A stretch of 64,000 nucleotides of DNA, from the IMG/VR virus record IMGVR_UViG_3300009694_000016, positions 27,960 through 91,959 of that record, one strand, 5' to 3'. This DNA is from a virus (taxonomy: Duplodnaviria > Caudoviricetes). The notes under the pieces were generated by a model that was given only the letters and a program-made list of their open reading frames with translations, was not told the origin of the DNA and did not search any database. The translations under genes were made by a program, and so were the position numbers. This document shows, piece by piece, positions 17,837 through 63,611 of the stretch. Every line of letters begins with the position of its first letter. Within the stretch, counting starts at the first letter, position 1.

Positions 17837-18055
17837 ATGAAAAACATGAAAAACTTAAAAACCTTTGAAGAATTTGACCCCTTTGGAATAAAAAAGAGAA
17901 AAGACAGAAAAGCTGAAGAAAAAAGAAGAGAGGAAGAGAAGGAAGCCGAGAGGGAAAGAAAAAGAGAAAAAATGATAGAAGACATGGAAGAACGTCTCGA
18001 TAGAGGTGAAATAACAAAAGATGAATGGACTACTTTTATGAGTCATATGCATTAA
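17837..18055 (+). CDS. Small charged protein with capsid-targeting-like N-terminus
   Basis: MKNLKTFEEF motif. Confidence 0.65.
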   Translation: MKNMKNLKTFEEFDPFGIKKRKDRKAEEKRREEEKEAERERKREKMIEDMEERLDRGEITKDEWTTFMSHMH

Positions 18056-18070
18056 AAAAAAATTAAAAAC

Positions 18071-18367
18071 ATGAAAAATCTAAAGACGTTTGAGAAATAT
18101 TCAGAAGAATTAAAGAATCCGATAGAGATGAAAGTTGAAACTGAAATAGTGAATAATAATGAAGATTTGATTTTTGGTTATCTAAATGGTAAGATTTCTA
18201 AAGGAACTTTTGAAAAGAAGTTAAAAGCAATCTTAAATAAAGAATATGGAAATGTTCTTTTAGATTTAGACATAGATAAATTAATAGCGAAAATAGAAAG
18301 ACACTACTCACCAGCATGGACGAGTAGAGAAGAAGAAGAAATTGACGATGTTGAGTGGATTTTATAG
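18071..18367 (+). CDS. Small protein with capsid-targeting-like N-terminus
   Basis: MKNLKTFEKYSEE motif. Confidence 0.65.
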   Translation: MKNLKTFEKYSEELKNPIEMKVETEIVNNNEDLIFGYLNGKISKGTFEKKLKAILNKEYGNVLLDLDIDKLIAKIERHYSPAWTSREEEEIDDVEWIL

Positions 18368-18482
18368 ATTTTCCTTTACTAAATTTTGACAATAAAATAA
18401 AAAAAATGAAAAATATATACCTAGGAACAATAGCAAAATAAATATATACTAGTAAATATATAAAAAATAATATAAAAAAAAC

Positions 18483-19082
18483 ATGGGTTTAGCACATTTT
18501 ACCAACGTAGCAACAGCCACTAATATGTGGGAGCCACTATTCAAAAGTTTATTTGAAATACAAATTGATTTACCACCGTTAGTAGCAGCAAATTTAGGAC
18601 CTGATATAAAGGCGCTTTTATTGGAAAACGCAACAAGCGTCCCACTACCAGCTTATCCAAAAATTGAAGTAAAACCTCAAAGATTTAAATATTCTACCCG
18701 TATTTATCCAACAATGCCAGCTCAAACACACTTAACAGAGCAGACTATTAAGTTTAACTTAAACGAATCTGTTGGTGTAAGACAAAACGTGAGTGGTGTT
18801 GTGAACGGTAGAGTTCCAATCTTTAGAGCCATTAAAGACTGGTACGATCTTATCTGGAATAATGAAACTGGTCAGTTAAACTACAAAGGAAACCTAGTCG
18901 CGACGGTAACAATTGACCAACACGATAAGGAAGGACTTGTAGTGAGACGTGTTATTTGGCATAACGCCTTTATAACTGGTTTCTCCGGGTGGGATGAAGG
19001 TCTAAACTGGGAATCAGTAACAGAAATCCACGATCTAACTGCTTCATTTGCATTAGATTATTATGAGGATTTTTATTACTGA
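18483..19082 (+). CDS. Tail tube protein (gp19-like)
   Basis: 199 aa downstream of sheath; EPLFKSLFEI, KDWYDLIWNNETG, LNWES...LTASFALDY pattern. Confidence 0.85.
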   Translation: MGLAHFTNVATATNMWEPLFKSLFEIQIDLPPLVAANLGPDIKALLLENATSVPLPAYPKIEVKPQRFKYSTRIYPTMPAQTHLTEQTIKFNLNESVGVRQNVSGVVNGRVPIFRAIKDWYDLIWNNETGQLNYKGNLVATVTIDQHDKEGLVVRRVIWHNAFITGFSGWDEGLNWESVTEIHDLTASFALDYYEDFYY

Positions 19083-19097
19083 AAATCAAGTAGTTAC

Positions 19098-19129
19098 AAA
19101 AAATATAGAACAATAGTTCTATATTTTTT
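19098..19129 (+). terminator. Intrinsic terminator after tube gene
   Basis: aaaaaatatagaac-aata-gttctatatttttt hairpin. Confidence 0.6.
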
Positions 19130-19137
19130 GCTCAAAA

Positions 19138-20034
19138 ATGGCTCAGATTACTGAGAAGAAAAAAAAGAATACATCTATGGAACAAAAATTGTGTAGAATA
19201 TGTGGCAAATTAAAATATATCGATAATTTCGATAAAAATGATAAAATGAAGGACGGACATAGAAATGAATGTAAGGATTGTAAAAATAAATTGTATAATG
19301 ATAAAGATAAAATAAGAAATCGTAATTTAAAAAAAGAGATTAAAACTGAAGGCAATAAGGTTTGTTGTGTTTGTGGAAAATTTAAGCCCTTATTAGAATA
19401 TCACATAAAAAGAGGCACTTCAGACGGGCGTCGACGTGAATGTAAAGAATGTGTCAAAGAAATTCAAAAGAAATATAAAGAGACTCCTGGATTTAAAGAT
19501 AGAGAAAAAGAATACGATAAACAAAGATACGAAGAAAAGAAAGATAAAATATTAGAAAGAAAAAGGGAATATCATGTAGAAAATAGAGAAGAAATATTAA
19601 AAAAGAAAAAAGAATATAGAAAAACTGAAGAATATAAAAATTTAAATAAAATATGGAGAGAAAATAATAGAGATAGAATAAATAAATTGATGATGGATTA
19701 TAAGGAAAGAAATCCTCATAGTGTTATGTGGAGACACATTCTCATTTCGACTTTAAAAAGATTAGGCACACCTAGACAAGATCATACCATAAGTATGCTT
19801 GGATATTCAGCCATAGATTTAAAAAAACATTTAGAAAAATTATTTACTCCGGGTATGTCTTGGGATAATTACGGCGAATGGCATGTGGATCATATTATTC
19901 AAGTAATAAAATTTGATGAAGATTCAGACATATCAGAAGTATGTTCTTTAGAAAATTTGAGACCTTTATGGAAAACAACAAGAGAAATAGATGGTGTTAT
20001 CTATGAAGGTAATCTAAACAGATCCAAATATTAA
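19138..20034 (+). CDS. HNH homing endonuclease-like protein
   Basis: Two CxxC...CxxC zinc modules; GMSWDNYGEWHVDHI...ENLRPLW. Confidence 0.8.
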   Translation: MAQITEKKKKNTSMEQKLCRICGKLKYIDNFDKNDKMKDGHRNECKDCKNKLYNDKDKIRNRNLKKEIKTEGNKVCCVCGKFKPLLEYHIKRGTSDGRRRECKECVKEIQKKYKETPGFKDREKEYDKQRYEEKKDKILERKREYHVENREEILKKKKEYRKTEEYKNLNKIWRENNRDRINKLMMDYKERNPHSVMWRHILISTLKRLGTPRQDHTISMLGYSAIDLKKHLEKLFTPGMSWDNYGEWHVDHIIQVIKFDEDSDISEVCSLENLRPLWKTTREIDGVIYEGNLNRSKY

Positions 20035-20058
20035 TTTCTCTTTTTAATATATAGTTTT

Positions 20059-20553
20059 ATGATAAAAACTTTTGAAAATTTCGATCAACTCCAATCATTT
20101 GTCACTAGAAAAGGATATGTTGACACGCAGGCGTTGTATGATATGTCAGCAAAACAATATCATTTAGCAAATAGATTAAGTATCGAAAGAATGACTACAT
20201 TTGAAAATTATCTTAAAGAACTTTTAATTGGAAAAGATGTTGTTTTTGATGGATGGAATGTTCAGGGAGTAGATACGCCAAATATCGGAGAAGAAAAAAC
20301 TTTTTTCATAAAAGTTAAAAACGTTCACATTACAAAAACTGGAAATAATATAAGTGCTATATATTTTATAGATGATGAAGATAATGTTTATCGTTCGCGT
20401 TGTTCGGGCACAAGAATAATTGATAAAGAAAAAGAAGAAGAAATTAGAAGAAAAAAAGAAGAAATAAGATTAAAAAATTTAGAATTCGATCCTTATGATG
20501 AGGAAAATTGGGGAGAAGAGTATGAAAGTAAAAATTATATACAAAGGCAGTAA
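20059..20553 (+). CDS. Hypothetical; CTS-like N-terminus and DPYDEENW tag
   Basis: MIKTFENF start; TAATATATA 5 nt upstream. Confidence 0.65.
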   Translation: MIKTFENFDQLQSFVTRKGYVDTQALYDMSAKQYHLANRLSIERMTTFENYLKELLIGKDVVFDGWNVQGVDTPNIGEEKTFFIKVKNVHITKTGNNISAIYFIDDEDNVYRSRCSGTRIIDKEKEEEIRRKKEEIRLKNLEFDPYDEENWGEEYESKNYIQRQ

Positions 20554-20635
20554 CGTGCAAGTTGATGATGGAGAATGTTATATAGATAGGGAAGATGAGT
20601 AGACGAATAAAGATAAAATATTAATATATAGTCTT

Positions 20636-21079
20636 ATGATTAAAACTTTTGAACAATATCGAGATGATCCTTATAGTGAGGAGATATGGGACAATGATTT
20701 CATCATTGTAATATATTTATCTAGGAACATATCCATATTTGGTTTTTCTGTACGCAAAGCTAGAATGGAAAATCAAGGAAGAGCTACTTGGTTCTACGAT
20801 AAGAATGGTAAATTGTTGTTAGAATCTTGGCGTGTAATAAGAATAAATAATGTAGATGAAGAAATAGAATTATCTGATCAAATGAAGAATAGTACTGATG
20901 CTATAGTTCTTCCAATAGGAACAAATAAAGAAGATATAGATAAAATTATCTCTAGGGTTTATGAAAGAATATATCCTCAATATAAAAAAGATTATGAAGA
21001 TACAATAAAAAGCAGAGAAAGATATCTAAAGAAAATATCTAATGTGGAAAATTTAACTATATGGGATGAAGACTTTTGA
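20636..21079 (+). CDS. Hypothetical; CTS-like N-terminus and DPYSEEIW tag
   Basis: MIKTFEQYRDDPYSEEIW; TAATATATA 5 nt upstream. Confidence 0.65.
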   Translation: MIKTFEQYRDDPYSEEIWDNDFIIVIYLSRNISIFGFSVRKARMENQGRATWFYDKNGKLLLESWRVIRINNVDEEIELSDQMKNSTDAIVLPIGTNKEDIDKIISRVYERIYPQYKKDYEDTIKSRERYLKKISNVENLTIWDEDF

Positions 21080-21100
21080 AAAATTTATGGAACAAGATCT

Positions 21101-21994
21101 ATGATAATAAAGAATTTTAAAATATTTGAAAAAACTTACGTTACTCACGGAAATGGAGGTAAGCCATATGCTATTGAATTCGATGATAAACATAATTATG
21201 TTGATATTTTAAAGAATAAATATAATAGATATTCTAATGTTAAGAAAGTGTGGACAGGAGATAAAGAAGATGATAATAGTAGTGTTTTAATTGAATTTCC
21301 ACATAAAAAATATATCTTTGTTGGAACTGAAGTTTATGAATTTGAAACAGATGAATTTATAACAGATTATTATTCAAAAATAGGAAATAATGATGTTCCA
21401 TATCCAGTAGCTCTTAGTGATAACTATGTCTATTTAATGTTAGAAAAAGTTTATATAGATAAAAAAGTCTTTCCATATAAAACTGACTGGAAAGTTTGTT
21501 ATGATTTTTATTACGAACACGAAAGCTCACTTCCAATTAAGAAATTCAAAAATCTTCAAATTATAGAAGAAGTCAATGAAAAATTAAATGAAGGATTCTC
21601 TGATGAAGTTTTGAAAAATGAAAAATCTTTTATAGTTAAAGATGTGTTAGATTATTGTAGAAAAAATGGAATTGATGATGTAAATGGATTAGAAGATTTA
21701 ATTCTCGATAAAAGAATAAGAATAGAAGAATTTAATAAGAAAACAAAAGAATATACTAATGTCAATAATGCTTTTGATACGATTGATGAATGGGATGAAC
21801 ATGGAGAAGTTCATTCTGTAGGTTGTATTGATGTTGGTGAATTTGAGTTAAATAACTATTTTGAAATTTTAAAAACAGATAGAATAACTATATTAGATTC
21901 TGATGATGAAAAAAAGAAAGCAAAAGCGGAAATAAAAGCTTCAATGAAAGCTTCTCCCGGAGATAGATGGTGGGAAAGAGGAATTCCATCGTAA
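21101..21994 (+). CDS. Hypothetical; CTS-like N-terminus
   Basis: MIIKNFKIFE; THGNGGKPY...IGNNDVPYPVA domain. Confidence 0.6.
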   Translation: MIIKNFKIFEKTYVTHGNGGKPYAIEFDDKHNYVDILKNKYNRYSNVKKVWTGDKEDDNSSVLIEFPHKKYIFVGTEVYEFETDEFITDYYSKIGNNDVPYPVALSDNYVYLMLEKVYIDKKVFPYKTDWKVCYDFYYEHESSLPIKKFKNLQIIEEVNEKLNEGFSDEVLKNEKSFIVKDVLDYCRKNGIDDVNGLEDLILDKRIRIEEFNKKTKEYTNVNNAFDTIDEWDEHGEVHSVGCIDVGEFELNNYFEILKTDRITILDSDDEKKKAKAEIKASMKASPGDRWWERGIPS

Positions 21995-22035
21995 ATTCAA
22001 TAAAAACTTTATTAAACTTTTTGAATATAAAGCAT

Positions 22036-22176
22036 ATGAAAAGAATATCGCGCTTTATATTATTAATCTTGATATCAATATTTGTATATTCTTGTGCCCA
22101 ATCTATAACGTGTTCGGGCGATCTGGAAAAATACAGATATCAACGCACAGAAAAATATTGGCATTATAAACATTAA
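22036..22176 (+). CDS. Small putative lipoprotein
   Basis: MKRISRFILLILISIFVYS-C signal with lipobox-like Cys. Confidence 0.5.
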   Translation: MKRISRFILLILISIFVYSCAQSITCSGDLEKYRYQRTEKYWHYKH

Positions 22177-22248
22177 TTTTATGCCAGGCCGCCGCTCCTT
22201 TAATATATAATATTGAAAAGGACAACCTATAAAAAATAAGTAAATAAA

Positions 22249-23193: not shown

Positions 23194-23272
23194 ACTGGAA
23201 AGTTTTGAGAAAACTGTTTTTACTGTTTTTACTGTTTCTTGGGAGAATCTAACCAGCAATAAATTTGAATTT

Positions 23273-23500
23273 ATGAGTCAGTTAAGGACTCCAACGTCTG
23301 TCGTTGATAATTGGCCTTATTATGAATTTGAAAGATATATAAAGCTGTTAAATGAAAAGAATGAGAACGAAAAGAAGCGACACGATGAGCAAGATAAACA
23401 ACAAAATCAAAATATGCCAAACATCAACGGTATATCAAATCTAGCCAAAAGCTTTAATCCATCACAGTATAGATTACCCGACTTCAAATCCCCATTTTAA
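23273..23500 (+). CDS. Small baseplate/tail assembly chaperone partner, possibly expressed as a frameshift fusion
   Basis: VDNWPYYEFERYIKLLNE pattern; frame is open from 23123, overlapping the upstream gene. Confidence 0.55.
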   Translation: MSQLRTPTSVVDNWPYYEFERYIKLLNEKNENEKKRHDEQDKQQNQNMPNINGISNLAKSFNPSQYRLPDFKSPF

Positions 23501-23515
23501 AAATGGGGATTTTTT
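23487..23515 (+). terminator. Intrinsic terminator
   Basis: aaatccccatttt-aaaaatggggattt hairpin followed by a T-tract. Confidence 0.7.
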
Positions 23516-23564
23516 ATTTTATATATAGCATCATATAAAAAACAAATATCCGATTCTAATAAAA

Positions 23565-23999
23565 ATGAAAAAAAAAATTAAAATGGACAATCTAAAAACT
23601 TTTGAAGAATGGATCTTTGGAAAGAAGGAGCTGACTCCAGATGAAGAGCGTGAAATAAAGGTTGGTGATACAGTACGTTACCATAAACTTGATAGAAACG
23701 GCGCGTTAAGTGATTTCTTCGATAATCAAATAGGAATAGTTAAAGAATTATTTGATGTTGAAGAACACGACACTCATAGCCCCAGCAAAAGGTTTCCGCG
23801 AGGTGACGCTAAAGTCATGTTTGATAAATTTTTTACATTTGAATTTGGCAATGGTACTACCAAATGGTTCATAACCCCACTTGAACATTTAGAAAAAGTA
23901 AGCAAAGAAGAATATAACGATTATTTAGAAGAAGAAAAAAGAAGAAAAGAAGAAATGAAATTCGTTGATCCGTATGGTGAGGAAGAATGGAAATCATAA
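23565..23999 (+). CDS. Hypothetical; CTS-like N-terminus, KOW/SH3-like domain, DPYGEEEW tag
   Basis: MDNLKTFEEW (alternative start 23583); IKVGDTVRY; VDPYGEEEW. Confidence 0.65.
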   Translation: MKKKIKMDNLKTFEEWIFGKKELTPDEEREIKVGDTVRYHKLDRNGALSDFFDNQIGIVKELFDVEEHDTHSPSKRFPRGDAKVMFDKFFTFEFGNGTTKWFITPLEHLEKVSKEEYNDYLEEEKRRKEEMKFVDPYGEEEWKS

Positions 24000-24008
24000 T
24001 ATAAAAAT

Positions 24009-24875: not shown

Positions 24876-24883
24876 ATAATAAT

Positions 24884-25066
24884 ATGAAAATTAAGAGATT
24901 CAATGAAAGTAAGTACACCGCTGAAGAGCACATTAATACTATTTGTACTTATTGTGACGAAATAAAAAATAATATAAATAGAATTCAAGATGAAGATATT
25001 CTTGAAAATATAGAATTTGACCTTTCAAATATATTACATCAGTATGATCTTCTAGACGAAGAATAA
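24884..25066 (+). CDS. Small protein with CTS-like N-terminus
   Basis: MKIKRFNES. Confidence 0.55.
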   Translation: MKIKRFNESKYTAEEHINTICTYCDEIKNNINRIQDEDILENIEFDLSNILHQYDLLDEE

Positions 25067-25082
25067 AAATGGACAATCACAA

Positions 25083-25727
25083 GTGAATAATCTAAAAACA
25101 TACGAGGAATTTAATTGGAAAAAAGGAGCAGCGACATTATCTATAGCTGGTGCTTTATCTGGCGGATTTTCTTCATGCGAACCTTCGGCTGATGTAGATT
25201 ATAAGGATCCAATTGAAGTAAATATTAATAAAGATAATATAGAATTAAAAGAATTATTAAAAATAAATAATATAAAACTTCCTTGTGTTATTGAGCTTTC
25301 AAATATTAATTGTGGAGTATGTCGAAAATATTACGTTAATCTAAAAAAAGTTTCAAAAAAATATAATGATATTAATTTTTATTATATTTTAACAGGTGAA
25401 GGTCACAACGATGATTATAATCTTAGAAGAAGGGGAGTGAATGCTTTTTTTACTAATAATAAAGCTTTCGATTTAAAAGATTTACCTGGTAATCAAGCTC
25501 CTTTACACGATGATAAAAATTTGGATAAGATAAGTATATCTACATCAGAAAATATTGAAAAACTTAGAAAAAATATAATGATGACTTATGATTTTAATGC
25601 TTTTCCAAGGACATTAATTATAGATAAAAACGGTAAATGTACTATTTTAAAATATGGATACATGGAAGAAGAAAGATTAGAAAGGTATGTTAAAAAATAT
25701 ATACCGAAAGAATTAAACTCCCGATGA
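25083..25727 (+). CDS. Thioredoxin-fold (TlpA-like) protein with CTS-like N-terminus
   Basis: CGVC active site, FPRTLIIDKNG cis-Pro motif; MNNLKTYEEF. Confidence 0.7.
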   Translation: MNNLKTYEEFNWKKGAATLSIAGALSGGFSSCEPSADVDYKDPIEVNINKDNIELKELLKINNIKLPCVIELSNINCGVCRKYYVNLKKVSKKYNDINFYYILTGEGHNDDYNLRRRGVNAFFTNNKAFDLKDLPGNQAPLHDDKNLDKISISTSENIEKLRKNIMMTYDFNAFPRTLIIDKNGKCTILKYGYMEEERLERYVKKYIPKELNSR

Positions 25728-26221
25728 ATAAAATAAAAATGTATAGAGAATACATTAAAGAGGATGCCGCTATTAAATGGTATGATAAGGGAAAATTTAG
25801 TGAAGATGATTCTGACGTTCCAGATGAACTTCCCGAACCAGATAAAGAAGGTGTAGGAATGCTACTTGGAAAAACTCTAAAATCTGTAGAGGTTGATGGC
25901 GATAGATATATTAGATTTCTAACAACAGAAGATGAAGAATTTATTATGTACCACGAGCAAGAGTGTTGTGAACATGTTCATATAGAAGATATAGTCGGAG
26001 ATACAGAAGATTTGGTCGGCTCACCAATACTTGTAGCGAGAGAAGATACAGGCCGCGACATTCCTTTAAGAGATTACGAAGAAAGTTGGACGTGGACATT
26101 TTATAATATAGGAACTTTTAAAGGACACGTAACTATACGTTGGTATGGATCTTCAAATGGATATTATTCTGAAAAAGCAGAGTTTAGAAAAATAGAAAAT
26201 GGTCAACCAGTATACTGGTAA
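25724..26221 (+). CDS. Conserved phage hypothetical protein with CTS-like N-terminus
   Basis: MYHEQECCEHVHIEDIVGD...WTWTFY...RWYGSSNGYYSE. Confidence 0.65.
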   Translation: MNKIKMYREYIKEDAAIKWYDKGKFSEDDSDVPDELPEPDKEGVGMLLGKTLKSVEVDGDRYIRFLTTEDEEFIMYHEQECCEHVHIEDIVGDTEDLVGSPILVAREDTGRDIPLRDYEESWTWTFYNIGTFKGHVTIRWYGSSNGYYSEKAEFRKIENGQPVYW

Positions 26222-26224
26222 GCA

Positions 26225-26258
26225 TAAAAAAACCAGACTCATCGAGTCTGGTTTTTTT
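26225..26258. terminator. Bidirectional intrinsic terminator
   Basis: aaaaaaaccagactc-atc-gagtctggttttttt. Confidence 0.85.
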
Positions 26259-26801
26259 GTGTCCTCTACCTCCACCTGTCTTCCTCCAGGTCGACGTTTC
26301 GTCTTATCGGATCCATTAAAAGGGCTGGTTAGAGGTTAACTTTGTAACATAACCTTCGTGTCGTTACCAACACAAGATAGAGAACGATGCTCTTAAATTG
26401 ATTTCTTTATGTCCGTCTATTTCATCTTTCTGAAGGATTACTTATGTCCGAAACATTAAAGAAAATGAAATAAAAATAATTTGATGAGATTCCTGACTAC
26501 TCATAATCCTCGGATTTCGTCAATCATTATTCGCCCACATCCCACAGAAATGATCGGTTTCAGTGTTTTACCCTTTCGGGTGGATGGGAGGTTTGGTATT
26601 CCTCCAACCAGATACAGCCATCATCGTGTTTTCTTACGATTTGTCTGGTTCTTACGTCACTCACGGTTGGCCAACCGTGGCTATTTCAGGTTTATGACAC
26701 AAAATCTGTAACACCCGCTCCCACGCTTTTCAGCGATGGGCTACAGTGCGTTGGGGGCTGGCTACCCCTCTATTCCGCCACAAATTATTTTAATTTCAAT
26801 C

Positions 26802-26813
26802 TTTCAAAGAACT
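26802..26813 (-). promoter_or_regulatory. boxA-like element AGTTCTTTGAAA (copy 3)
   Basis: Exact 12-mer repeat resembling rRNA-operon boxA. Confidence 0.6.
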
Positions 26814-26971
26814 TTTACTTTACTGGAAATGAAGTGTGGGCTGCTTCATTCCGATACTAGTCCAAAGGACTATCGGTTTTACTCTTCGAGGACTTCTGCC
26901 CGCTCTTCGTCTGTTTCCCCTGCGGCTCCTCAAGCATCCACAGACTATTCCCCTTCCTTACTTCCAGTTTT

Positions 26972-26983
26972 TTTCAAAGAACT
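26972..26983 (-). promoter_or_regulatory. boxA-like element AGTTCTTTGAAA (copy 2)
   Basis: Exact 12-mer repeat. Confidence 0.6.
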
Positions 26984-27179
26984 CGGATTGCTAAAAGGGA
27001 CAGAATTAACTGTATTGAGCTTAAAAGCGCCTTTTCGCAATCAAGAGCATTTAAATGAAAGTGAGTGCCCTATTCTCACAAGCGATAAAGATAAAGTCTA
27101 TTATATAGAGATATCTCAATCACCCAGCCATTCAGATCAATATTCCTTATAGGAACTCCTTGAATTTACAGCTTTTCAT

Positions 27180-27191
27180 TTTCAAAGAACT
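27180..27191 (-). promoter_or_regulatory. boxA-like element AGTTCTTTGAAA (copy 1)
   Basis: Exact 12-mer repeat. Confidence 0.6.
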
Positions 27192-27318
27192 TATTTGATA
27201 AGTACTGAGATTCAATTTATCAAATTTTTAATCCCTACTATTGGGTTGAAAGGTTATCTCGCCGTTCAGGATTCAGTCATTCTGTGGACTGATAATTTGA
27301 TTATCTCAAATTGATATA

Positions 27319-27326
27319 CAAAGATA
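27319..27326 (-). promoter_or_regulatory. Bacteroidota-type -7 promoter element
   Basis: TATCTTTG matches TAnnTTTG directly upstream of the ncRNA region; -33 TTTG not clearly present. Confidence 0.6.
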
Positions 27327-27617
27327 CATCAATTATGCGAGATAAAAAAACTTTTCTCAAAATTTTTTGAAAAAAGTTCTAATGTTTATTTCTCAATATT
27401 ATCTAAGAACTTTACTAAATCGTCAATAATAACAGATTTTATATTATATATATACCGGAGAATTTTTTTTGTTTTAGAAAAATTAAAAAATTTTTGAAAT
27501 TGGCAGATAGCTCAAAAAATCATTCAATTAGTATCATTGTCGTTTGCCCGGAGTGTGACGGTAGAGGATATATGGGGAAAAAACAATGTCCTATCTGTAA
27601 AGGAAGAGGAGAAATTA

Positions 27618-33104: not shown

Positions 33105-33611
33105 TTATATAGCCTGTCCTCCTTGTGCTGGAGGAATTTGAGCTGCTGTTTTTTGTGCTCCCTGTGCTGGAGGAGCGCCTTGAACTGGTTGTGCTCCCGG
33201 TTGAGCTTGAGCTCCTGGTTGAGCAGGTGGTTGAGCTTGAGGTTGACCCTGAATTGGTTGAGTTTCATCTAAACCTTCAGTATCTGGTTGTCCTTGAGCT
33301 TGAGCTTGACCTTGAGCTTTTGAATATTGATCACCCAAAATTAAGTTAACAGGAAGATTTTCAATGCTAACATAAGATGTGATGATATAATCCGCAATCT
33401 CCTCAGATAATTCTACATCTGAATAGAATTGACTAATATTCTTACCACTTTCATCTTTTACTTTCTTCTTAAAAGCATTAACAAGTGACATTGGAATATC
33501 AATTCTTTTTCTAACTCTGTAGATATCATCAACAGCTTGAACGTTCTCTGTCAAATGGCTGATATTTCTTTTGCCTTGAAATTCGCCAAATTCGTATAAA
33601 TTCTTTGTCAT
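33105..33611 (-). CDS. Hypothetical with Gln/Pro/Ala-rich tail; CTS-like N-terminus
   Basis: MTKNLYEFGEF; AQPGAQ repeats; TAATATATA upstream. Confidence 0.6.
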   Translation of the reverse strand: MTKNLYEFGEFQGKRNISHLTENVQAVDDIYRVRKRIDIPMSLVNAFKKKVKDESGKNISQFYSDVELSEEIADYIITSYVSIENLPVNLILGDQYSKAQGQAQAQGQPDTEGLDETQPIQGQPQAQPPAQPGAQAQPGAQPVQGAPPAQGAQKTAAQIPPAQGGQAI

Positions 33612-38563: not shown

Positions 38564-38782
38564 TTACCATCTTTCTCCCCCGAAATACGAAGGTTCTTTA
38601 TGTGTGAAAAGTTCTATATTAGTTCTACCACAATTTGGACACTTTTTTCCTTTTTTATCAGATTCTTTGGCCATGAATTTGTGTTTACAATCCCAACAGT
38701 AATATTCTTTTTTGCTTTCTTTTGGACTTTTAAAAATTTTAAATTCTTCGAATGTTTTCATATTTTTAAGTTTTTTCTCCAT
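38564..38782 (-). CDS. Small zinc-ribbon protein with CTS-like N-terminus
   Basis: MKTFEEF; CWDC...CPNC. Confidence 0.65.
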   Translation of the reverse strand: MEKKLKNMKTFEEFKIFKSPKESKKEYYCWDCKHKFMAKESDKKGKKCPNCGRTNIELFTHKEPSYFGGERW

Positions 38783-38800: not shown

Positions 38801-39187
38801 TTAATGAAATCCAAAAATTCTTCCAACCTTGTCTACGTGATCATATAAATATTCTCGCTCTCTATCTGTTAATAATTCTCTTATTCTTCTTTGTACTTCT
38901 CTGTCATTATCAATATTACCATGAAAATTCATTATCATTTCATCTTCAGATAATTTATCTATAATATTTTTCAGATATTTATGTTTTTTATACATTTCTT
39001 TTAAATAATCAATACCATTCTCTGCTAATATACTTGTCCCTAAAGTTGGAATAGCGCAAAGAATTCTACCAAAAGCGTTGTACCATCCAACTAAAGAGTC
39101 TCCTTTAATTAAAAGATCTTCTCCTTTTTCGGGTTTTTCAAATTTAAATTCCTCGAATGTTTTAATATTTTCAAATTTTTTTTCCAT
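38801..39187 (-). CDS. Hypothetical with CTS-like N-terminus
   Basis: ENIKTFEEF. Confidence 0.6.
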   Translation of the reverse strand: MEKKFENIKTFEEFKFEKPEKGEDLLIKGDSLVGWYNAFGRILCAIPTLGTSILAENGIDYLKEMYKKHKYLKNIIDKLSEDEMIMNFHGNIDNDREVQRRIRELLTDREREYLYDHVDKVGRIFGFH

Positions 39188-39648: not shown

Positions 39649-40125
39649 TTAAAATTGTGGTAATTGAGTTGATCTAATTTCTTTTCCCAACAAGCGACTC
39701 ATCTCACTCGCAATCCATCTTGATCCTTTACGATCGATATAACATTTTTTAGGAAAATTGTTGACATCGTAAATATCCATTGAACATCCAGGTCGACCAA
39801 CATCTCCCACCGAAATAAATCGTATACGCGAACTATTTGCAAAATCCAAGTGATTTTGAATATTAAACTTGATATATCTATCTTTATCCGTCGGAAGTGC
39901 TGCCATAACAATCCCAGGTTGAAGAAGAACATCATAAACTTCATCAGATCCTTCCAACTTGACTTTTATATTATTACCGTAGACTTTATTCTTACGTTCT
40001 CCTGCTAATGTAGCGAGACGTTTGCCACGCGGATCGTTGCGTTCATGACCATATTTTTTTAGTTTGTCATAAGTTTCTATATTCAATTCATTTAAGAATT
40101 CGTCAAAGTTCTTCAACGTGTTCAT
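39649..40125 (-). CDS. Hypothetical with CTS-like N-terminus
   Basis: MNTLKNFDEFLNE; TAATATATA upstream. Confidence 0.6.
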   Translation of the reverse strand: MNTLKNFDEFLNELNIETYDKLKKYGHERNDPRGKRLATLAGERKNKVYGNNIKVKLEGSDEVYDVLLQPGIVMAALPTDKDRYIKFNIQNHLDFANSSRIRFISVGDVGRPGCSMDIYDVNNFPKKCYIDRKGSRWIASEMSRLLGKEIRSTQLPQF

Positions 40126-40179
40126 CTTCTTTGATTTTATTTTTATTTATTTATATATTAAATAAATAAATTGAAATTT

Positions 40180-40872
40180 TTAAGCATTGAGAAAATCAAG
40201 ACATTCCTCATCGAAATATTCGGATTGCTTTGTTGGGTCCTCACCACCGCCCCATCCAGCGTTTTGTTTTTTGCTGAATTTATGATCAAATCTTACCAAA
40301 TACATTGGATTAAAACTTCCCCAATAATCTATAACCACTCCTTTTTTACCTACAAATTCTTTTTTGTTTACTGTTTCGTATTCGTTTCGATCTATTTGAA
40401 TTTCATAAGGGATTGCTGCTTTATCGTTAATCACAACAGAATCACCAGGCTTAAATTTATATTTTAATTTATTTCGACTTAATCCATATTTTTTATAAAC
40501 ATCCCATCTTGGATGTCTCCACGATTCTTTTTTATTTTCTTCACATTCTTCTTTTGTTTTAAACATATTTTCTTCGTCTGCATGAAGAACTATTTCTTTT
40601 GACTCGTCTGGTGTGCCCCAATCCTCTTCACCGTAAGGATCTTCTTTTGAATAAATTCTTTCGCTTGGTTTAATAGTACTACTCAAATCATAAGACCATA
40701 TGTATGGATAATTTTCTGGAGTGCGATGGACACCAAATATTTCATAATAACCACTTCGATCCGTTGACATACTCAAAGGATCATATTCATAATAAACAAT
40801 ATCACCTTTTTTATATTTAGCGTCGCTGAAATTTATATTTTCTAATATATATTCACAATATTTTTTGATCAT
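40180..40872 (-). CDS. Hypothetical; CTS-like N-terminus, two KOW/SH3-like modules, DPYGEEDW tag
   Basis: Likely start MIKKYCEYILE at 40872; YKKGDIV, FKPGDSV. Confidence 0.6.
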   Translation of the reverse strand: MIKKYCEYILENINFSDAKYKKGDIVYYEYDPLSMSTDRSGYYEIFGVHRTPENYPYIWSYDLSSTIKPSERIYSKEDPYGEEDWGTPDESKEIVLHADEENMFKTKEECEENKKESWRHPRWDVYKKYGLSRNKLKYKFKPGDSVVINDKAAIPYEIQIDRNEYETVNKKEFVGKKGVVIDYWGSFNPMYLVRFDHKFSKKQNAGWGGGEDPTKQSEYFDEECLDFLNA

Positions 40873-40889
40873 GAACTTATATATTGATT

Positions 40890-41852
40890 TTATATTTTGA
40901 GAAAGTTGAGGCATTCTTGGAGAATTTTATCGGGATGCGAACGATATTCAGAATCCCAAACTACATGAACGGAGAACCCATTTTCTTCTGCTACTTCCAA
41001 TTTTCTTTTATCTTTTTCCCAAATTTGTTCGGCCGTATATTGTTTTCTGAACGGGTGAGAAATATCGTCCTTTTCAAAATAATTTGGATTGGCATGATAT
41101 TCATCGCCGTTATACTCTATCATTTTTTTATTTTTCAAATCTGTATAATCATATATCCATATACCGCCTTCTTTTTTAGGTAAATTAAATTCTTTGTTTT
41201 TAGTGGCAAAAAATATATTTTTATGATCTTGAAAATCGTAATTTTTTAGTATGTCATAAAATAAAATTTGAGAAGATTTTGAAAATCCGTGTTTCAAATT
41301 GCCGTTATCGTTTAAGCTTTTTTGCCATTTTTTCTGCCTTTCACTAAAAATTTCTCTGCCTTTTTCTTCTCCGTATTTTTCTATACATTTCTTCAAAGTG
41401 AAGGTTTTCTGTCTATTGGCTAACATTTTTTCGGATTCTTCTTCTGTATAACCTCTAGATATATAGTATTCTATTCTCATTGGTCTTTTCTCTGGGGGTA
41501 TTTCTTTTTGAACTTTTCTAGCAAACTCTAAAGCTTCATTTTCATCTTTATATTTAATAAAATGTTTAGAGAAAGGACTTCTACTTTTTCTCTCTTCTTC
41601 TGTGGCCTTTGCTTTACTGTTTGGGTTGTTTTCACCACTAAACATTTCGGAAAACATTTTTTTATATTTTTCCTGTTTCATGTGTTTTCCAGAATTTTTA
41701 GTGGTATTTTTATTATCCGATTTATTATAAAGCGGAGCACCAGGATATAATTTTAAATATTCTTTTGATGTTAAACCGTGACTTTTGAGATGCCTACCAT
41801 AAATTCTTGTAGATTGTTTGCCACAAATTTTACAAGTAATCAAATCTTCCAT
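40890..41852 (-). CDS. Free-standing homing endonuclease-like protein (PD-(D/E)XK)
   Basis: CKICG...HLKSH zinc finger, GENNPNS NUMOD-like, YDY...IEYNGDEYHANP...VVWDSE; directly downstream of terL N-part. Confidence 0.75.
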   Translation of the reverse strand: MEDLITCKICGKQSTRIYGRHLKSHGLTSKEYLKLYPGAPLYNKSDNKNTTKNSGKHMKQEKYKKMFSEMFSGENNPNSKAKATEEERKSRSPFSKHFIKYKDENEALEFARKVQKEIPPEKRPMRIEYYISRGYTEEESEKMLANRQKTFTLKKCIEKYGEEKGREIFSERQKKWQKSLNDNGNLKHGFSKSSQILFYDILKNYDFQDHKNIFFATKNKEFNLPKKEGGIWIYDYTDLKNKKMIEYNGDEYHANPNYFEKDDISHPFRKQYTAEQIWEKDKRKLEVAEENGFSVHVVWDSEYRSHPDKILQECLNFLKI

Positions 41853-52302: not shown

Positions 52303-52690
52303 GTTTTTTTATTAATGTAAAATATGGCTCATCATCTTCAACATCGTCAAAATCTTTATATACTTCAAAACCATTTTTAAAATATAAATTTAACGCTTTT
52401 TGATTATCTTTATAAACATTCAAAAGTATATAATCAATTTTAAGATCATTTTTCACATAATTAAATATCTGATCTAATAGATACCTCATAAAACCTTTTC
52501 CTCGTGATTCCTTGATGGTTTTTAATCTAAAAAGACCTACATATTTTTGATTAAATAAATTGTCTGATTGCGCGATAACAAAATATGACTCTGCTACACA
52601 AACATCTTCTGAGAATAATTGAAATCTACTTGCATCAACTACAAATCTTTTTGCTGGTTCTAGAAATTCATATAATTTTTTTATTTTCAT
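52295..52690 (-). CDS. GNAT family acetyltransferase with CTS-like N-terminus
   Basis: ESRGKGFMR acetyl-CoA motif, VYKDNQKALNLYFKNGF; MKIKKLYEFLE. Confidence 0.85.
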   Translation of the reverse strand: MKIKKLYEFLEPAKRFVVDASRFQLFSEDVCVAESYFVIAQSDNLFNQKYVGLFRLKTIKESRGKGFMRYLLDQIFNYVKNDLKIDYILLNVYKDNQKALNLYFKNGFEVYKDFDDVEDDEPYFTLIKKLI

Positions 52691-53475
52691 CTTTCAAAAT
52701 AGGGTGGTAATTTTCTTTTATGTTCGCTTCTATGATATAGGTTTTCAATTTTTCTTACAACTTCTTCTGTAACAGGGCAATCACCAGTTTTAGCTATTTT
52801 CCAATTCCAATATTTTTCAAAATCGTCATAAGAAAATCCCAATTCATCTTCGTCCACAACGCCTTTAATTAATCCTGCGCTTGGTATGCGATTTACTAAA
52901 TCATCAGGCAAACCAAAATATTTTACAAATTGTTTTATTTCAGATTTATAATAATTTGCAAGTGGCTCTATATCAACACCATGACCTCCATCACCAGCCT
53001 TGGTAAAATATCCAACCATATCTTCTGATTTATTGGTAGTACCTAAAACCAAATAACCGTTTATTTCTGCATACATTCTAAGAATTGTCATTCTTATTCT
53101 GGCTTGAATATTTCCAAGAGCAAACGGTTTTATTTCACCATCATGTTCTTTTATTATAGCTTCGACAGTTCCTCTTATTGGATGAACAACATGTTTTATT
53201 CCAAAATGTTTGACTACTCTCATTCCATCACCAACATCATCTTTATATTCAACTATAGAAGGAAGTAAAACTCCGAGTACATTTTCTTTTCCAACGGCCA
53301 TAACAGCTAAACCGCACGATGCAGTTGAATCAATTCCACCAGATATACCAACAACAAAACCTTTTGATCCAGAATTTTTTATATAATTTCTAAGCCATTC
53401 TGATATTCTTTCGGCGTCACTTTCTATATTTTCTACACTTTCTCTTAAATATTGTGTGAAATTTATTATTTTCAT
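52687..53475 (-). CDS. nadE: NH3-dependent NAD+ synthetase with CTS-like N-terminus
   Basis: GISGGIDS, GNIQARIRM, GTTNKSE, GYFTKAGDG, PSAGL...DEDELG, SEHKR. Confidence 0.93.
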   Translation of the reverse strand: MKIINFTQYLRESVENIESDAERISEWLRNYIKNSGSKGFVVGISGGIDSTASCGLAVMAVGKENVLGVLLPSIVEYKDDVGDGMRVVKHFGIKHVVHPIRGTVEAIIKEHDGEIKPFALGNIQARIRMTILRMYAEINGYLVLGTTNKSEDMVGYFTKAGDGGHGVDIEPLANYYKSEIKQFVKYFGLPDDLVNRIPSAGLIKGVVDEDELGFSYDDFEKYWNWKIAKTGDCPVTEEVVRKIENLYHRSEHKRKLPPYFER

Positions 53476-53491
53476 ATTTTATCTTTTTATT

Positions 53492-54022
53492 TTAGTATAA
53501 TTCGAAATCTTCATATGGATATCCTCCCCATCCATTAGGAGTATCCGTAAACCATATATACTGCGTCACTGCTCCTTCTACTGTTTTTATCTCTCCAGCT
53601 TTTATTTCTCTTTTATATTTTTTATTTTCAGCAGCCTTAGTATTTATACTATTTTTAATACATATAACTCTATCTCCAGTATGCAAGTTATACATATCTA
53701 ACTTTTTGTCAGTTGGCATCCTATATTCACTCATTTCACTTTGCCATTTGTTATGTAAAGAAACCCAAAAATCGCCTCTTTCGGTAGTGCGCCACCAACT
53801 AAACGCTCTATTTATATATTCATGTTTTGGACAACGTGAAAAAACAAAATCCGGTTTACAATTTGCTAAATAAGATTCATAAGCATCGTTATCAATCAAA
53901 AATTGACGAAAACCATCATCTGTAATTTTATCATTATATTCAATTGGTATTTCTTCCTCCCATTTTCCTTTGGAGTACCATTTAATAGCTTCAAATATTT
54001 TAAATGTTTTTATCATAATCAT
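53492..54022 (-). CDS. Hypothetical with CTS-like N-terminus; paralogue of 63270..63611
   Basis: MIKTFKIFE; shared FL....YI..F.W.....FW..LH.KWQ domain. Confidence 0.6.
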   Translation of the reverse strand: MIMIKTFKIFEAIKWYSKGKWEEEIPIEYNDKITDDGFRQFLIDNDAYESYLANCKPDFVFSRCPKHEYINRAFSWWRTTERGDFWVSLHNKWQSEMSEYRMPTDKKLDMYNLHTGDRVICIKNSINTKAAENKKYKREIKAGEIKTVEGAVTQYIWFTDTPNGWGGYPYEDFELY

Positions 54023-54091
54023 TCTTATATATTAATTTTTCATTTTGTAATGTCGCATTTTTAATATATAAAAGAAAAAGGACTTTTAAAA

Positions 54092-55792: not shown

Positions 55793-55806
55793 AATAATAA
55801 AATGAT

Positions 55807-60600: not shown

Positions 60601-60699
60601 GAAAGAGAAAAAAGTTTTTTAGATGGGCAAAAACTAGACACTCGTGAGGATATGAGCACAAGAGAAAAGAATGGATTAGATCATGAAAGACTTAGATAA
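57670..60699 (+). CDS. Large hypothetical structural protein with internal 14-aa repeats
   Basis: 1009 aa in the baseplate operon. Confidence 0.6.
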   Translation: MAEDINIMTVPKYVPKAPNQREGTGYNSDTRQSIEPSFIDVQTTVDLDSDAFKYGYGYKSGPSMETMQTDPLFFFQDPLFPTYDVILDTTRSPLFIVNSGDTYNNSLAKFLSDYSDIYSMRSRIKIHEQFLKTLYNLFNTEFNQIERNKSYYINSISGLDNLTARIVDFEKQKITINLNEDISMVATYLAQLYNNLSYSYKDQKLMIPYNLLRFNMYIKVHDVRNMPFYIPNADSGTTTSFDKSYVIYVLRDCSFDFKKSKNFEDSITAGGFDAGAPTKTSSISFDVVYKSIEIESEFPLIMDLWDVGSSALKLNNKDSSLTFGQSEDNKPTALEYNIVFMNNYKTPQSFADELTQSSTFNNDQDSSIARNRTLLNSTSGSTAEAQRNYKFGVVSSDTNSSTREGDIKEVDRKYEPTSNITFEDMNNHRVDSLNDWRLYDPAVFDGEWNTGFGQSGPEVQALKTSFMNEVALYEFLFSLPQNILTKFFGGMHGLNPLIPIYVPDEPSNIPPMEEIYVYSGETNDLHKSPAGDTVDTETKTKRQPLDAFMQFDLKPSKHISGSIDTHFDPRKYLDGEFIPFALRPRQPIDAFIPFALRPRQPLDAFIPFALRPPQKLSGKLEFVIKPKDQLDARIDTTPRPYKPVLGVIDTTIKPKEPLDIVLDMTPRERELELGRLYENTYGQREIDLGLLYSAVKKEHLLPLLYLYSKTDKFNNLTDYKVYNNAESEIKPLDARIDQQTRQINPLQIIYKYDNNIDMEKTLGNLLLYNNEITKLKNLEIIDLYGKVEAKNELTEKYLYENERAEVKSLDDQHIQMQRKKQSQTDLGSIDTSVEYILKPKLGYIYTLEDTEKKLLEPVKLYQPPKKSSIELDLGEIYEKFKYRGNIFDQKIKPEEIKDEERTNVLEHDRIEVAPFKRNKNILNPTEEERKKEASKDLEERKRKDEEYKGLHGDKLEHGKIIEQSFERRNITEEDKGDEREKSFLDGQKLDTREDMSTREKNGLDHERLR
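59398..59504 (+). repeat. 42-bp coding tandem repeat (FIPFALRPRQPxDA), about 2.5 copies
   Basis: Units start at 59398, 59440, 59482; degenerate copies flank them. Confidence 0.85.
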
Positions 60700-62482
60700 A
60701 CTATGGTTCGGTTTAGTGGAAGACAATAAAGATCCTGATAGACTAGGAAGAATAAAAGCAAGAGTTCAAAGTGTATTTGATAACATACCAATCGAGGACA
60801 TACCGTGGGCCACGCCTATAAAAACTTTGAGCGCAAGATCGTATGAAGCTCCAGCTATTGGCAAAATTGTGTCCGTTTTCTTTCCAAACGATAATCTTTA
60901 TGAGCCTTACTATATGTACGCGGATCATTATAATGTAAATCTTGGAAAGAAATTATCTGATTTGAGTGATGATGAATATGCCAATTTTGTAGCTGTATTA
61001 TTTGATCACAGAACAAAAGTATATGCGGATGATAGTGCCCTTACTATGGATTATCTATATAATAAGATAACTATAACTAATGATAATATAAACTTAGAGT
61101 TAAAAGATAATAATAGAAAAGTAAATATAGGTTGTAAGACCGCTTCTCAACAAGCTGTTTTAGGAAATCACTGGTTTGATTGGTTTGATAAATTTGTTGC
61201 GTGTCTTATAAAACCAAACTCATTAATAGGAAATTTGAATTCTCCTGTTCTAAAAACCGAGCTCGAACAACTTTTGACCGAATATCAATTAAAAAGAGAG
61301 ACTTTTGTTTCAGATCACGTTTACATAGTAGATGACAACAAAGTAGATAAATTAGAAATGAAATATAACAGCCCGATTATGGATGACGGTGTTAAAATAA
61401 ATAGTAATCCTATTGCTGGAAATAATTTTGGAGATGTAAATACTCAGAATTTATCACAAAATATAAAAGATCAAAAAGATCAACAACTAGAAACTCTTAT
61501 GGAAGCTGCCCCCAGTGATCTTAAAAATCAAGAAGATGTAAAAGATTTAAGTGAGGAGCAAGCCTCTGGTGATAAATCTGGAGATACTAGTCTTCAAAAT
61601 GTTTATTCAGAAGTTGTTAATAATCAAGAAAATGAAATAACCAAAGAAGAATATGACACTAAAAGATCTAAGGAATTAGAAACTCTTATAGTTTATGAAG
61701 ATGTGGATGAGCAACAAGACGCTGATGATCTGATATATGATTTGGAAATAAGTGGTCAAGTTACAGAAGACGTCATAACAGATTATGAAGACAGTAATAT
61801 GGTTTTTCTAGCTCCAGATAATAGTAAATATATTGATAAAACTGAGCCAAAAACAACAACGCCAGATGAGCAATATACACCAGCATCAACTTCTGACTGC
61901 AAGGATATAACTTCTACAAATATAAATAAATTTATGAAATTGTCAAATAAATTCTATCTAAAAGATTTATTGGCAAATTCTACATCAGAAGCTCAAAACT
62001 TTATATACAACGGCGGTTCAAAAACACAGAATGGTTTGACGAGAGTTCAAATTGTATGTAATCTTAAAAACTTATGTGTTAATTGTTTGGATGCTATTAA
62101 AACTAAATATCCACAAATGTACATATCAAGCTCTTTTAGAACAAACGGATCGCTTGCCAGATCTAGTAATTCATCACAACATAATTTAGGTCAAGCAGTT
62201 GATTTTCAAATTAAAGGATTGAAACATAAAGAATATTATGATGTTGCTACTTATATAAAAGATTACATTAAAAATTATGATCAATTGTTATTAGAATATA
62301 GAACAAGCGGAAGACATCCTTGGATCCACATATCATATACAAACGGAAAAGATAGTAGTTACAAAAGAAATAGAAAAATGAACATCACAATGTTAAATGA
62401 TAAATCTTACAAAAGACCAGGAGATCGTGGGTTTACAAATTTGGCTGGGCAGGACGGAAAAGATCCAAATACTGTTACTTAA
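60683..62482 (+). CDS. Baseplate spike protein (gp5-like OB fold) with C-terminal M15 peptidase
   Basis: GLVEDNKDPDRLGRIKARV...IPWA...PAIGKIVSVFF; SSFRT...SQHNLGQAVDF...WIHISY. Confidence 0.85.
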   Translation: MKDLDKLWFGLVEDNKDPDRLGRIKARVQSVFDNIPIEDIPWATPIKTLSARSYEAPAIGKIVSVFFPNDNLYEPYYMYADHYNVNLGKKLSDLSDDEYANFVAVLFDHRTKVYADDSALTMDYLYNKITITNDNINLELKDNNRKVNIGCKTASQQAVLGNHWFDWFDKFVACLIKPNSLIGNLNSPVLKTELEQLLTEYQLKRETFVSDHVYIVDDNKVDKLEMKYNSPIMDDGVKINSNPIAGNNFGDVNTQNLSQNIKDQKDQQLETLMEAAPSDLKNQEDVKDLSEEQASGDKSGDTSLQNVYSEVVNNQENEITKEEYDTKRSKELETLIVYEDVDEQQDADDLIYDLEISGQVTEDVITDYEDSNMVFLAPDNSKYIDKTEPKTTTPDEQYTPASTSDCKDITSTNINKFMKLSNKFYLKDLLANSTSEAQNFIYNGGSKTQNGLTRVQIVCNLKNLCVNCLDAIKTKYPQMYISSSFRTNGSLARSSNSSQHNLGQAVDFQIKGLKHKEYYDVATYIKDYIKNYDQLLLEYRTSGRHPWIHISYTNGKDSSYKRNRKMNITMLNDKSYKRPGDRGFTNLAGQDGKDPNTVT

Positions 62483-63273
62483 TCTAAATCCCAATCTTCT
62501 TCACCATAAGGATCTTCTGGAGACGTAACTCTCATAGGTTCTCTAACATACAAAACTAAATTATCATTGACTGGAAATCCGCTGTGTAGTACTCCGTGTT
62601 TGTCTCCCAAATCAATAAACACCGTTGGACAATCTGAATAATATCCACTATCTTTTGAATAAACCGAGTTTAGCATTAAATATTCACTATCTCTAACATT
62701 ATATAATTCCTGTGGATCGCTAAACCAAATTTTTAATAAAACATAACTTCCAATATATTTAGAGAGTTCGTCTTCAATCAATTTGTGTTTATTTATATGT
62801 AGTTTATATTTATCATATAATTCATCTAATCTAACTATTTTTATAACTTTATCTAATTTAGCACCTTCATTCATTTCCCACTCTTCTTCTCCATAAGGAT
62901 CTACATCTTGATATTTTAATCTTAGTTTCTCTAATTCATCTTTTCTCTTTCTTTCAAATTCTGAATCAACTAAAGTTAAAAGATCAAATCTTATATAATA
63001 TGAACAATTAGTCGGATCATATATGCAACCGGAAAAGTCTTTCTGCCCGCTATGTAAACCATTATGAAATCTATTAGGAAATTTAACCAGCGCTGATCTT
63101 GGTTCAATGTCGATTATTTTTCCTATTTCGCCTTTAAATGTAATTTGACTTTGTTCGCCTTTGCAAATAACATAGTCACCAATTTGAAATGGGTGTGTTT
63201 TATTAGACACATCTTTTTTGTAGAATTTAGAATCGTATTCTTCTTTAATATATTCAGAATATTTTTTAATCAT
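62479..63273 (-). CDS. Hypothetical; CTS-like N-terminus, KOW-like module, two DPYGEE(E/D)W tags
   Basis: MIKKYSEYIKEE; FQIGDYVIC. Confidence 0.65.
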   Translation of the reverse strand: MIKKYSEYIKEEYDSKFYKKDVSNKTHPFQIGDYVICKGEQSQITFKGEIGKIIDIEPRSALVKFPNRFHNGLHSGQKDFSGCIYDPTNCSYYIRFDLLTLVDSEFERKRKDELEKLRLKYQDVDPYGEEEWEMNEGAKLDKVIKIVRLDELYDKYKLHINKHKLIEDELSKYIGSYVLLKIWFSDPQELYNVRDSEYLMLNSVYSKDSGYYSDCPTVFIDLGDKHGVLHSGFPVNDNLVLYVREPMRVTSPEDPYGEEDWDLD

Positions 63274-63611
63274 CTTCTTCTAATATTTTCTTTTTCTATA
63301 ATCTTTTGCCATTTCCAATGAAGATCTAACCAAAATTTTTGTCCTTGCGGGCTAGCGTCCCAATTAAATGGTCCTGAAATATAATTCATTGGATCTTGAT
63401 TATCAAAAGTATCGGGATAATTTACACGAGTAATATCGAGAGCTTTATTTTCACTATTCTTTATGTATTCTTCGAGACAATCATGTTTTATTAAAAATTC
63501 TCTAAGTCTACGATTGGATATAAAATCGTCCGGCTCTTCTTCAATTTCCATTCCTTCATCTTCGTCAAAATCGATAGACTCTTTTAAATATTCAGAATAT
63601 TTTTTAATCAT
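63270..63611 (-). CDS. Hypothetical with CTS-like N-terminus
   Basis: MIKKYSEYLKES; TAATATATA 5 nt upstream. Confidence 0.65.
   Translation of the reverse strand: MIKKYSEYLKESIDFDEDEGMEIEEEPDDFISNRRLREFLIKHDCLEEYIKNSENKALDITRVNYPDTFDNQDPMNYISGPFNWDASPQGQKFWLDLHWKWQKIIEKENIRRR

Follow-up and report, generated by a model that had tools for sequence, protein, structure and literature searches.

Many otherwise unrelated proteins of an uncultivated huge phage begin with the same short peptide, here called the tag, which we found in a 64,000-nt stretch of viral DNA (the window; IMG/VR record IMGVR_UViG_3300009694_000016, bases 27960-91959 of a 92-kb contig with ~30% GC). Our analysis shows the tag to be a short, helix-prone add-on that is carried by many unrelated, mostly soluble accessory proteins of this phage lineage. 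Because it matches, position for position, the capsid targeting sequence (CTS) with which phage T4 loads internal proteins into its head, a role of the tagged proteins as capsid cargo suggests itself, and we give about an even chance to the reading that the tag is a portable N-terminal address peptide of the T4 CTS kind. An earlier note, made from the letters of the window, had drawn attention to these N-termini and proposed a cargo-loading system; its claims are taken up below together with the results that bear on them.

A clade-specific peptide at the extreme N-terminus

The nearest public relative of the window is LR756501, a 735-kb uncultivated phage (74% identity between the tail sheaths) from Al-Shayeb et al. 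2020, where it belongs to the Mahaphage clade with Bacteroidetes predicted as host (PMC7162821). The tag is not mentioned in that study, and the searchable literature yielded neither a description of it nor a paper linking huge phages to capsid targeting. A loose pattern, applied to the N-termini of both the contig and LR756501, seeded a position matrix that was then refined by iteration, the Met column being dropped; open reading frames (ORFs) were called tagged at a score threshold of 9. The resulting set comprises 151 proteins, with tags at the N-terminus of 20 of the 112 ORFs of the contig and 131 of the 1008 ORFs of LR756501. Internal windows of equal size gave 0 hits in ~100 for the contig and 2-4 per 800-980 ORFs for LR756501. 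The tag rate is thus 13-18% of ORFs at the extreme N-terminus versus ≤0.5% inside proteins, an enrichment far above chance. The tag consists of Met, 0-5 residues and [I/L]-K-x-[F/Y]-x-x-[F/Y/W], often followed by [I/L/V]-x-Glu; its first aromatic is residue 5 in 69 cases (M-I-K-K-F) and residue 7 in 26 (M-x-N-L-K-T-F).

All 19 N-termini quoted in the earlier note exist at or beside ORF starts, MNNLKTYEEF being that of the GTG-start ORF 25083. Its estimate of about 20 tagged proteins holds for the greater part, as 15 of the 19 score between 10 and 18.7 (Table 1), while the N-termini of NadE and a GNAT protein, MKIKRFNES and MTKNLYEFGEF are unconvincing.

Three AT-rich Bacteroidota phages served as controls and contained 1 tagged ORF in 189 (Lak-A1), 2 in 292 (PTm1) and 2 in 188 (MaF61); together with the internal windows, all at ≤1%, they exclude a compositional artefact of AT bias as the explanation of the tag. 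The genomes LR756504 (636 kb) and LR756500 (462 kb) carry it on 36 of 589 (6%) and 11 of 305 ORFs (3.6%), respectively, in the variant form MKY[I/L]K-x-[F/Y]-E-x-F. The tag is therefore clade-specific. A pattern scan of IMG/VR revealed additional contigs on which several tagged ORFs lie next to one another. Five such loci (34-39% GC) have neighbouring ORFs starting with MIKKFEEFINE or similar, and neither of two elements that accompany the tag in the window, the protein motif DPYGEE and the DNA element TAATATATA (both described below), was found on these contigs, which indicates that the tag reaches beyond this lineage. A Pfam search with the first 35 residues of ten carriers (E up to 1) gave no meaningful match to the tag.

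Synonymous codons are used inside the tag just as they are elsewhere in the genome, indicating selection on the peptide. With nucleotide sequences that differ freely, this rules out a DNA-level cassette or recombination linker and shows that the tag is conserved as a peptide and not as DNA.

The tag precedes complete domains of unrelated, fast-evolving proteins

After trimming of the tag, an all-against-all BLAST comparison split the 151 carriers into 131 components, 121 of them singletons. This rules out a single paralogous family and bears out the claim of the earlier note that the carriers are unrelated. About 90% of the carriers have no Pfam or PHROG family and none falls into a structural or replication core family; a match to SbcC was rejected as a false positive. 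The annotated carriers of LR756501 include a glutamyl-tRNA synthetase (GluRS), polyphosphate kinase 2 (PPK2), CoaE, a DeoC aldolase, methyltransferases, a GNAT protein and two radical-SAM proteins. In four LR756501 carriers, position 1-2 of the domain profile aligns behind the tag: at residue 27 for GluRS, 14 for CoaE, 20 for a CoaD-like enzyme and 22 for a radical-SAM protein. An N-terminal extension of ~45 residues, made up of the tag, the sequence IKWYDKGKF and an acidic linker, is present in the DUF7448 protein 25724-26221 of the window; most of the 33 homologues aligned with it, which come from bacteria, archaea and other phages, do without this extension. In the AlphaFold model of the protein, residues 1-30 have a predicted local distance difference test score (pLDDT) of 46-60 and include a short helix (residues 7-13), and the domain is modelled confidently from residue ~40 onwards. 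Judging from these alignments, the tag is an add-on before complete domains of independent origin (DUF7448, GluRS, CoaE, CoaD-like and radical-SAM).

Membrane helices are rarer in carriers (7 of 151) than in the remaining proteins (137 of 969), and tagged genes cluster along the genome, with 45 adjacent pairs where 17 ± 3.6 are expected. A homologue in LR756501 exists for only 8 of the 20 tagged genes of the contig (40%; median identity 38%), compared to 63 of the 92 untagged genes (68%; 65% identity). The carriers are mostly ORFans, fast-evolving and poorly conserved. The interval between sheath and tube genes (window 17775-18475) holds two tagged genes that are absent from LR756501, which has no genes there, and in a riverine relative it is replaced by 2121 other bases; it is a hyperplastic slot. 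As a gene class, the carriers behave like T4 internal proteins, being unrelated, clustered, poorly conserved, swapped out in relatives and poor in membrane helices.

The tag matches the T4 capsid targeting sequence position for position

When the matrix, built only from huge-phage N-termini, was applied to all 260 ORFs of T4, the five highest scores went to gp61.1 (17.7), ipIII (15.1), ipII (15.1), an unrelated ORF (10.9) and ipI (10.1), and we calculated the chance of all three internal proteins ranking in the top five of 260 at ~3.5e-6. Mutagenesis of the T4 CTS has assigned targeting to residues 4 and 7, both aromatic, and processing to residues 8 and 10, a hydrophobic residue and Glu that make up an L/I-x-Glu site (PMC9026906). 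The two aromatics of the tag, likewise three residues apart, correspond to residues 4 and 7; they are F/Y in 149 and F/Y/W in 146 of the 151 tags, partly by construction of the seed pattern. The position directly after the second aromatic, corresponding to T4 residue 8, is I/L/V in 44% of tags, and position +3, which lies outside the matrix and corresponds to residue 10, is Glu in 38% of tags versus 7% in the background. An [ILVM]-x-E triplet occurs within 46% of tags versus 11-15% in controls. The likeness to the T4 signal, to which the earlier note had pointed, holds quantitatively; at the processing positions it takes the form of a clear enrichment, with over half of the tags lacking the site.

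The highest T4 scorer, gp61.1 (NC_000866 18966-19130), is a hypothetical protein of 54 residues encoded beside the primase gene and starts with MKTFKEFIKE. Since it outscores ipII and ipIII with a matrix derived from huge phages, it may be an unrecognised CTS-bearing protein of T4.

A T4-type head module and prohead protease in the nearest relative

LR756501 encodes, in T4 gene order, a T4-type portal (71969-73795), an 807-aa protein (73913-76336) and a gp23-like capsid protein (76415-78166). Over its first 180 residues, the 807-aa protein is similar to the Lak S77 protease (E 1e-33), T4 gp21 (E 3e-5) and, weakly, Pfam S77. Its remaining 600 residues are conserved with the tag-bearing LR756504 and cannot be aligned with the tag-free Lak-A1, and we regard this C-terminal part as a candidate scaffold and tag receptor. 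On the 92-kb contig itself, portal and protease were not found, and the only trace of a capsid protein was a marginal Gp23 match on an 89-aa ORF; the protease link therefore rests on the relative LR756501.

If the tag works as in T4, its two aromatics would attach the carrier to the scaffolding core within the prohead during head assembly; in the relative, the protease-scaffold protein would probably provide this core with its long C-terminal region. Tags ending in [I/L/V]-x-Glu would then be cut off by the prohead protease of the gp21 family, and the carriers would remain in the head and enter the host along with the DNA. We infer these steps of docking, cleavage after Glu, retention and ejection from sequence comparison.

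A promoter-like element and two further motifs accompany the tag

The earlier note had placed the element TAATATATA just upstream of many tagged genes, and this is confirmed. It occurs 15 times in the window versus 4.4 expected, and lies ≤80 nt upstream of 28% of tagged versus 11% of untagged genes, a 2.6-fold enrichment (p = 1.6e-7). As it also stands before the protease-capsid operon and the baseplate genes of LR756501, we read it as a probable late-type promoter. In the contig and LR756501, TAATATATA(G) ends 3-8 nt before the ATG of 42 genes, 25 of which are tagged, implying very short leaders; if it is a -10-like element, the mRNAs would be leaderless or nearly so. The promoter type of Bacteroidetes hosts, TAnnTTTG, was not associated with tagged genes.

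A second portable motif, DP[Y/F][G/S/D/N]EE-x-W (DPYGEE-W for short), is present in 108 of the 1120 ORFs of contig and LR756501, in the window between 20488 and 62901. It often sits at the extreme C-terminus in the form [K/R][I/V][F/Y][S/T]-x-x-DPYGEE-x-W-x-x-stop. Tagged proteins contain it more often (28%) than untagged ones (7%; odds ratio 5.3, p = 1.6e-12), and some of its untagged carriers begin with a hydrophobic stretch resembling a membrane helix. No paper was found in the literature that mentions DPYGEE in the sense of a portable motif. A third small module, IKWY-x-KGK[F/W], directly follows the tag or DPYGEE-W, with sites at 25763-25795 and 53951-53983 of the window and in the contig protein 16003-16869, and is modelled as a beta hairpin with low confidence.

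Capsid cargo and its alternatives

Several observations weigh against capsid cargo. The window and its contig contain no head genes. The [I/L/V]-x-Glu site is seen in only 38-46% of tags, so that over half are without it, and the T4 record does not list the top T4 scorer, gp61.1, as a virion protein. The carriers are slightly acidic (median pI 5.4) whereas T4 internal proteins are basic, and those of LR756501 include GluRS, PPK2, CoaE, methyltransferases and radical-SAM enzymes, whose presence in a capsid would not be expected at first sight. In the GTG-start ORF 25083-25727, the tag is followed by a lipoprotein-like, export-type signal, odd for a protein destined for the head. Lak phages, finally, have the same protease family (Peptidase S77) without the tag. 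The cargo-loading system proposed in the earlier note is accordingly only partly sustained: the T4 match and the protease of LR756501 speak for it, and the acidic character of the carriers, the housekeeping-type enzymes and the lack of head genes in the window speak against it.

Acidic carriers, housekeeping enzymes, the partial cleavage site, the export signal, tagless Lak phages and the headless contig together make docking to another partner a serious rival. Here the tag would be a docking helix for a destination other than the capsid, such as a phage-made compartment, an enzyme hub, a chaperone or an adaptor bringing accessory enzymes together. Enzymes are known to be targeted to bacterial microcompartments by short amphipathic N-terminal helices. 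The LR756501 carriers, including its CoaD-like enzyme, DeoC aldolase and GNAT protein, would suit such a destination, and the co-occurrence of the tag with DPYGEE-W, which is also found on untagged membrane proteins, suggests a wider peptide-docking network. On the other hand, the match to the T4 positions, including the I/L/V-x-Glu suited to a Glu-specific head protease, would then be a coincidence, and the link to a promoter-like element of head and baseplate genes is in keeping with the time at which heads are assembled. We consider this explanation a real possibility, with roughly one chance in four in its favour.

An expression-level role is possible but poorly supported, and we think it improbable. 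The conserved start would in that case help late mRNAs with no leader, or almost none, to be translated, or would shield the N-terminus against degradation, which the position of TAATATATA so close to the ATG and the very A/U-rich codons of the tag might suggest. Against it stand the unremarkable synonymous codon usage, substitutions that are conservative at the peptide level (F/Y/W, I/L/V, E/Q/D/N), more than 100 tagged genes without a close promoter, the ordinary N-termini on other genes of the leaderless class and equally AT-rich Bacteroidota phages that do without the tag. That the tag has no shared function at all, reflecting AT-rich composition or one large paralogous family, is highly improbable: N-termini of AT-rich genomes are rich in Lys, Ile and Asn, and NadE, GNAT and MKIKRFNES are examples of this trivial kind, but the low background in internal windows and control phages, the predominance of BLAST singletons and the independent origin of the tagged domains all argue against it.

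Returning to capsid cargo, we hold only tentatively, and with less confidence than in the address peptide as such, that more than 100 different proteins may be loaded into the capsid by a T4-like address peptide in huge phages of this lineage. By analogy with SPN3US, which has ~50 head proteins from a 240-kb genome (PMC7411985, PMC5694885), tagging on this scale would not be absurd for a giant phage. If true, the cargo would include glutamyl-tRNA synthetase, CoA-pathway enzymes, polyphosphate kinase 2, methyltransferases and radical-SAM enzymes, and every infection would start with the injection of a large, fast-evolving kit of enzymes and counter-defence proteins beside the DNA. Huge phages have hundreds of ORFan genes, and a recognisable tag on 13-18% of ORFs would sort a large share of their uncharacterised proteome into one functional class, probably that of proteins delivered with the DNA. 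Virion cargo of uncultivated phages could then be predicted by a simple rule at the sequence level, and an old origin of the T4 targeting mechanism, common to very distant T4-type heads, would be suggested as well.

Tag sites and genomic context of the window

Table 1 Tag-like N-termini in the window with their matrix scores and associated features
Sequence	Position (strand)	ORF	Score	Remarks
NLKTFEEFDPF	17852..17884 (+)	17837-18055 (72 aa)	15.4	Likely start at second Met, 17846
NLKTFEKYSEE	18077..18109 (+)	18071-18367	14.0	
MIKTFENFDQL	20059..20091 (+)	20059-20553	16.8	DPYDEENW near C-terminus; TAATATATA at 20045-20053, end 5 nt before ATG
MIKTFEQYRDD	20636..20668 (+)	20636-21079	15.5	DPYSEEIW directly after tag; TAATATATA at 20622-20630
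IIKNFKIFEKT	21104..21136 (+)	21101-21994	17.6	
NLKTFEEWIFG	23589..23621 (+)	23565-23999	16.0	Likely start MDNLK at 23583; C-terminal end DPYGEEEWKS
KIKRFNESKYT	24887..24919 (+)	24884-25066	3.8	Weak; without second aromatic
NLKTYEEFNWK	25089..25121 (+)	25083-25727 (GTG start)	11.4	Tag, then lipoprotein-like signal (GAATLSIAGALSGGFSSC), then CxxC thioredoxin-like body
KIKMYREYIKE	25730..25762 (+)	25724-26221	16.0	DUF7448 protein
NLYEFGEFQGK	33570..33602 (-)	33105-33611	3.5	Weak variant
NMKTFEEFKIF	38732..38764 (-)	38564-38782	13.8	Zinc ribbon
NIKTFEEFKFE	39137..39169 (-)	38801-39187	18.7	
TLKNFDEFLNE	40087..40119 (-)	39649-40125	18.4	FLNE in tag fits I/L-x-Glu; TAATATATA at 40152-40160
MIKKYCEYILE	40840..40872 (-)	40180-40914	10.1	Likely true start 40872; DPYGEEDW internal
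KIKKLYEFLEP	52655..52687 (-)		4.6	GNAT domain; weak, other register
KIINFTQYLRE	53440..53472 (-)	52687-53475	9.2	NadE; borderline
MIKTFKIFEAI	53984..54016 (-)	53492-54022	17.0	IKWYSKGKW directly follows tag; TAATATATA at 54026-54034
MIKKYSEYIKE	63241..63273 (-)	62479-63273	16.4	Two DPYGEE-W motifs
MIKKYSEYLKE	63579..63611 (-)	63270-63611	16.1	TAATATATA at 63617-63625, end 5 nt before ATG

In the long ORFs beginning at 23565, 38564 and 40180, the true start is probably an internal Met just before the tag. In NadE, position 3 of the NAD_synthase profile falls on residue 22, leaving no extra length, and the LR756501 homologue is untagged; its N-terminus is probably natural and not an appended tag. 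The LR756501 orthologue of ORF 33105-33611 begins with MNKNLYEFGEF, so that this weak variant is conserved.

The window further encodes tail sheath, tail tube, baseplate hub and wedge proteins, a split terminase, a gp32-like protein and glycosyltransferases, and its sequence is present in public sequencing runs of activated sludge, wastewater and river water. In three activated-sludge metatranscriptomes, RNA contigs cover the tail genes and, of the tagged genes, no more than parts of two; the missing cover over the remaining tagged genes is uninformative, and these contigs show only that the phage is transcribed there. In the same three metatranscriptomes, RNA contigs also cover a non-coding stretch at 26251-27398, with a word depth of 600-1365 against 20 or less in the adjoining tail genes, and this stretch therefore looks like a very abundant phage RNA.

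Comparison with known systems

The closest known counterpart is the T4 CTS, likewise an N-terminal peptide of ~10 residues on otherwise unrelated, poorly conserved proteins, with two aromatics three residues apart, followed in part of the huge-phage tags by I/L/V-x-Glu, and accompanied by a gp21-family protease and a T4-type head module, here in the relative LR756501. The differences lie in scale, with 13-18% of all ORFs here versus three or four proteins in T4, and in the carriers, which are acidic here and include metabolic and translation enzymes while those of T4 are basic. In addition, the distance from Met varies, the first aromatic being residue 5 or 7 instead of 4, and over half of the huge-phage tags are without a cleavage-type ending.

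In the giant phages phiKZ, 201phi2-1 and SPN3US, head and ejection proteins carry long N-terminal propeptides, which have been proposed to target them into the prohead and are removed by a gp21-related protease cutting after Glu (PMC5694885). The parallels with the tag are genome size, the ~50 different head proteins and the type of protease; this is, however, another phage lineage, its propeptides are mostly longer than 100 residues without a single shared short consensus, and its cleavage motif is A/S/G-x-Glu.

Outside phages, the cargo-loading peptides of encapsulins and the encapsulation peptides of bacterial microcompartments address unrelated enzymes into a protein shell. Those of encapsulins are usually C-terminal, and neither kind is similar to the tag in sequence or removed by a Glu-specific protease; what both have in common with the tag is that they are short, portable, helix-prone and found on unrelated enzymes.

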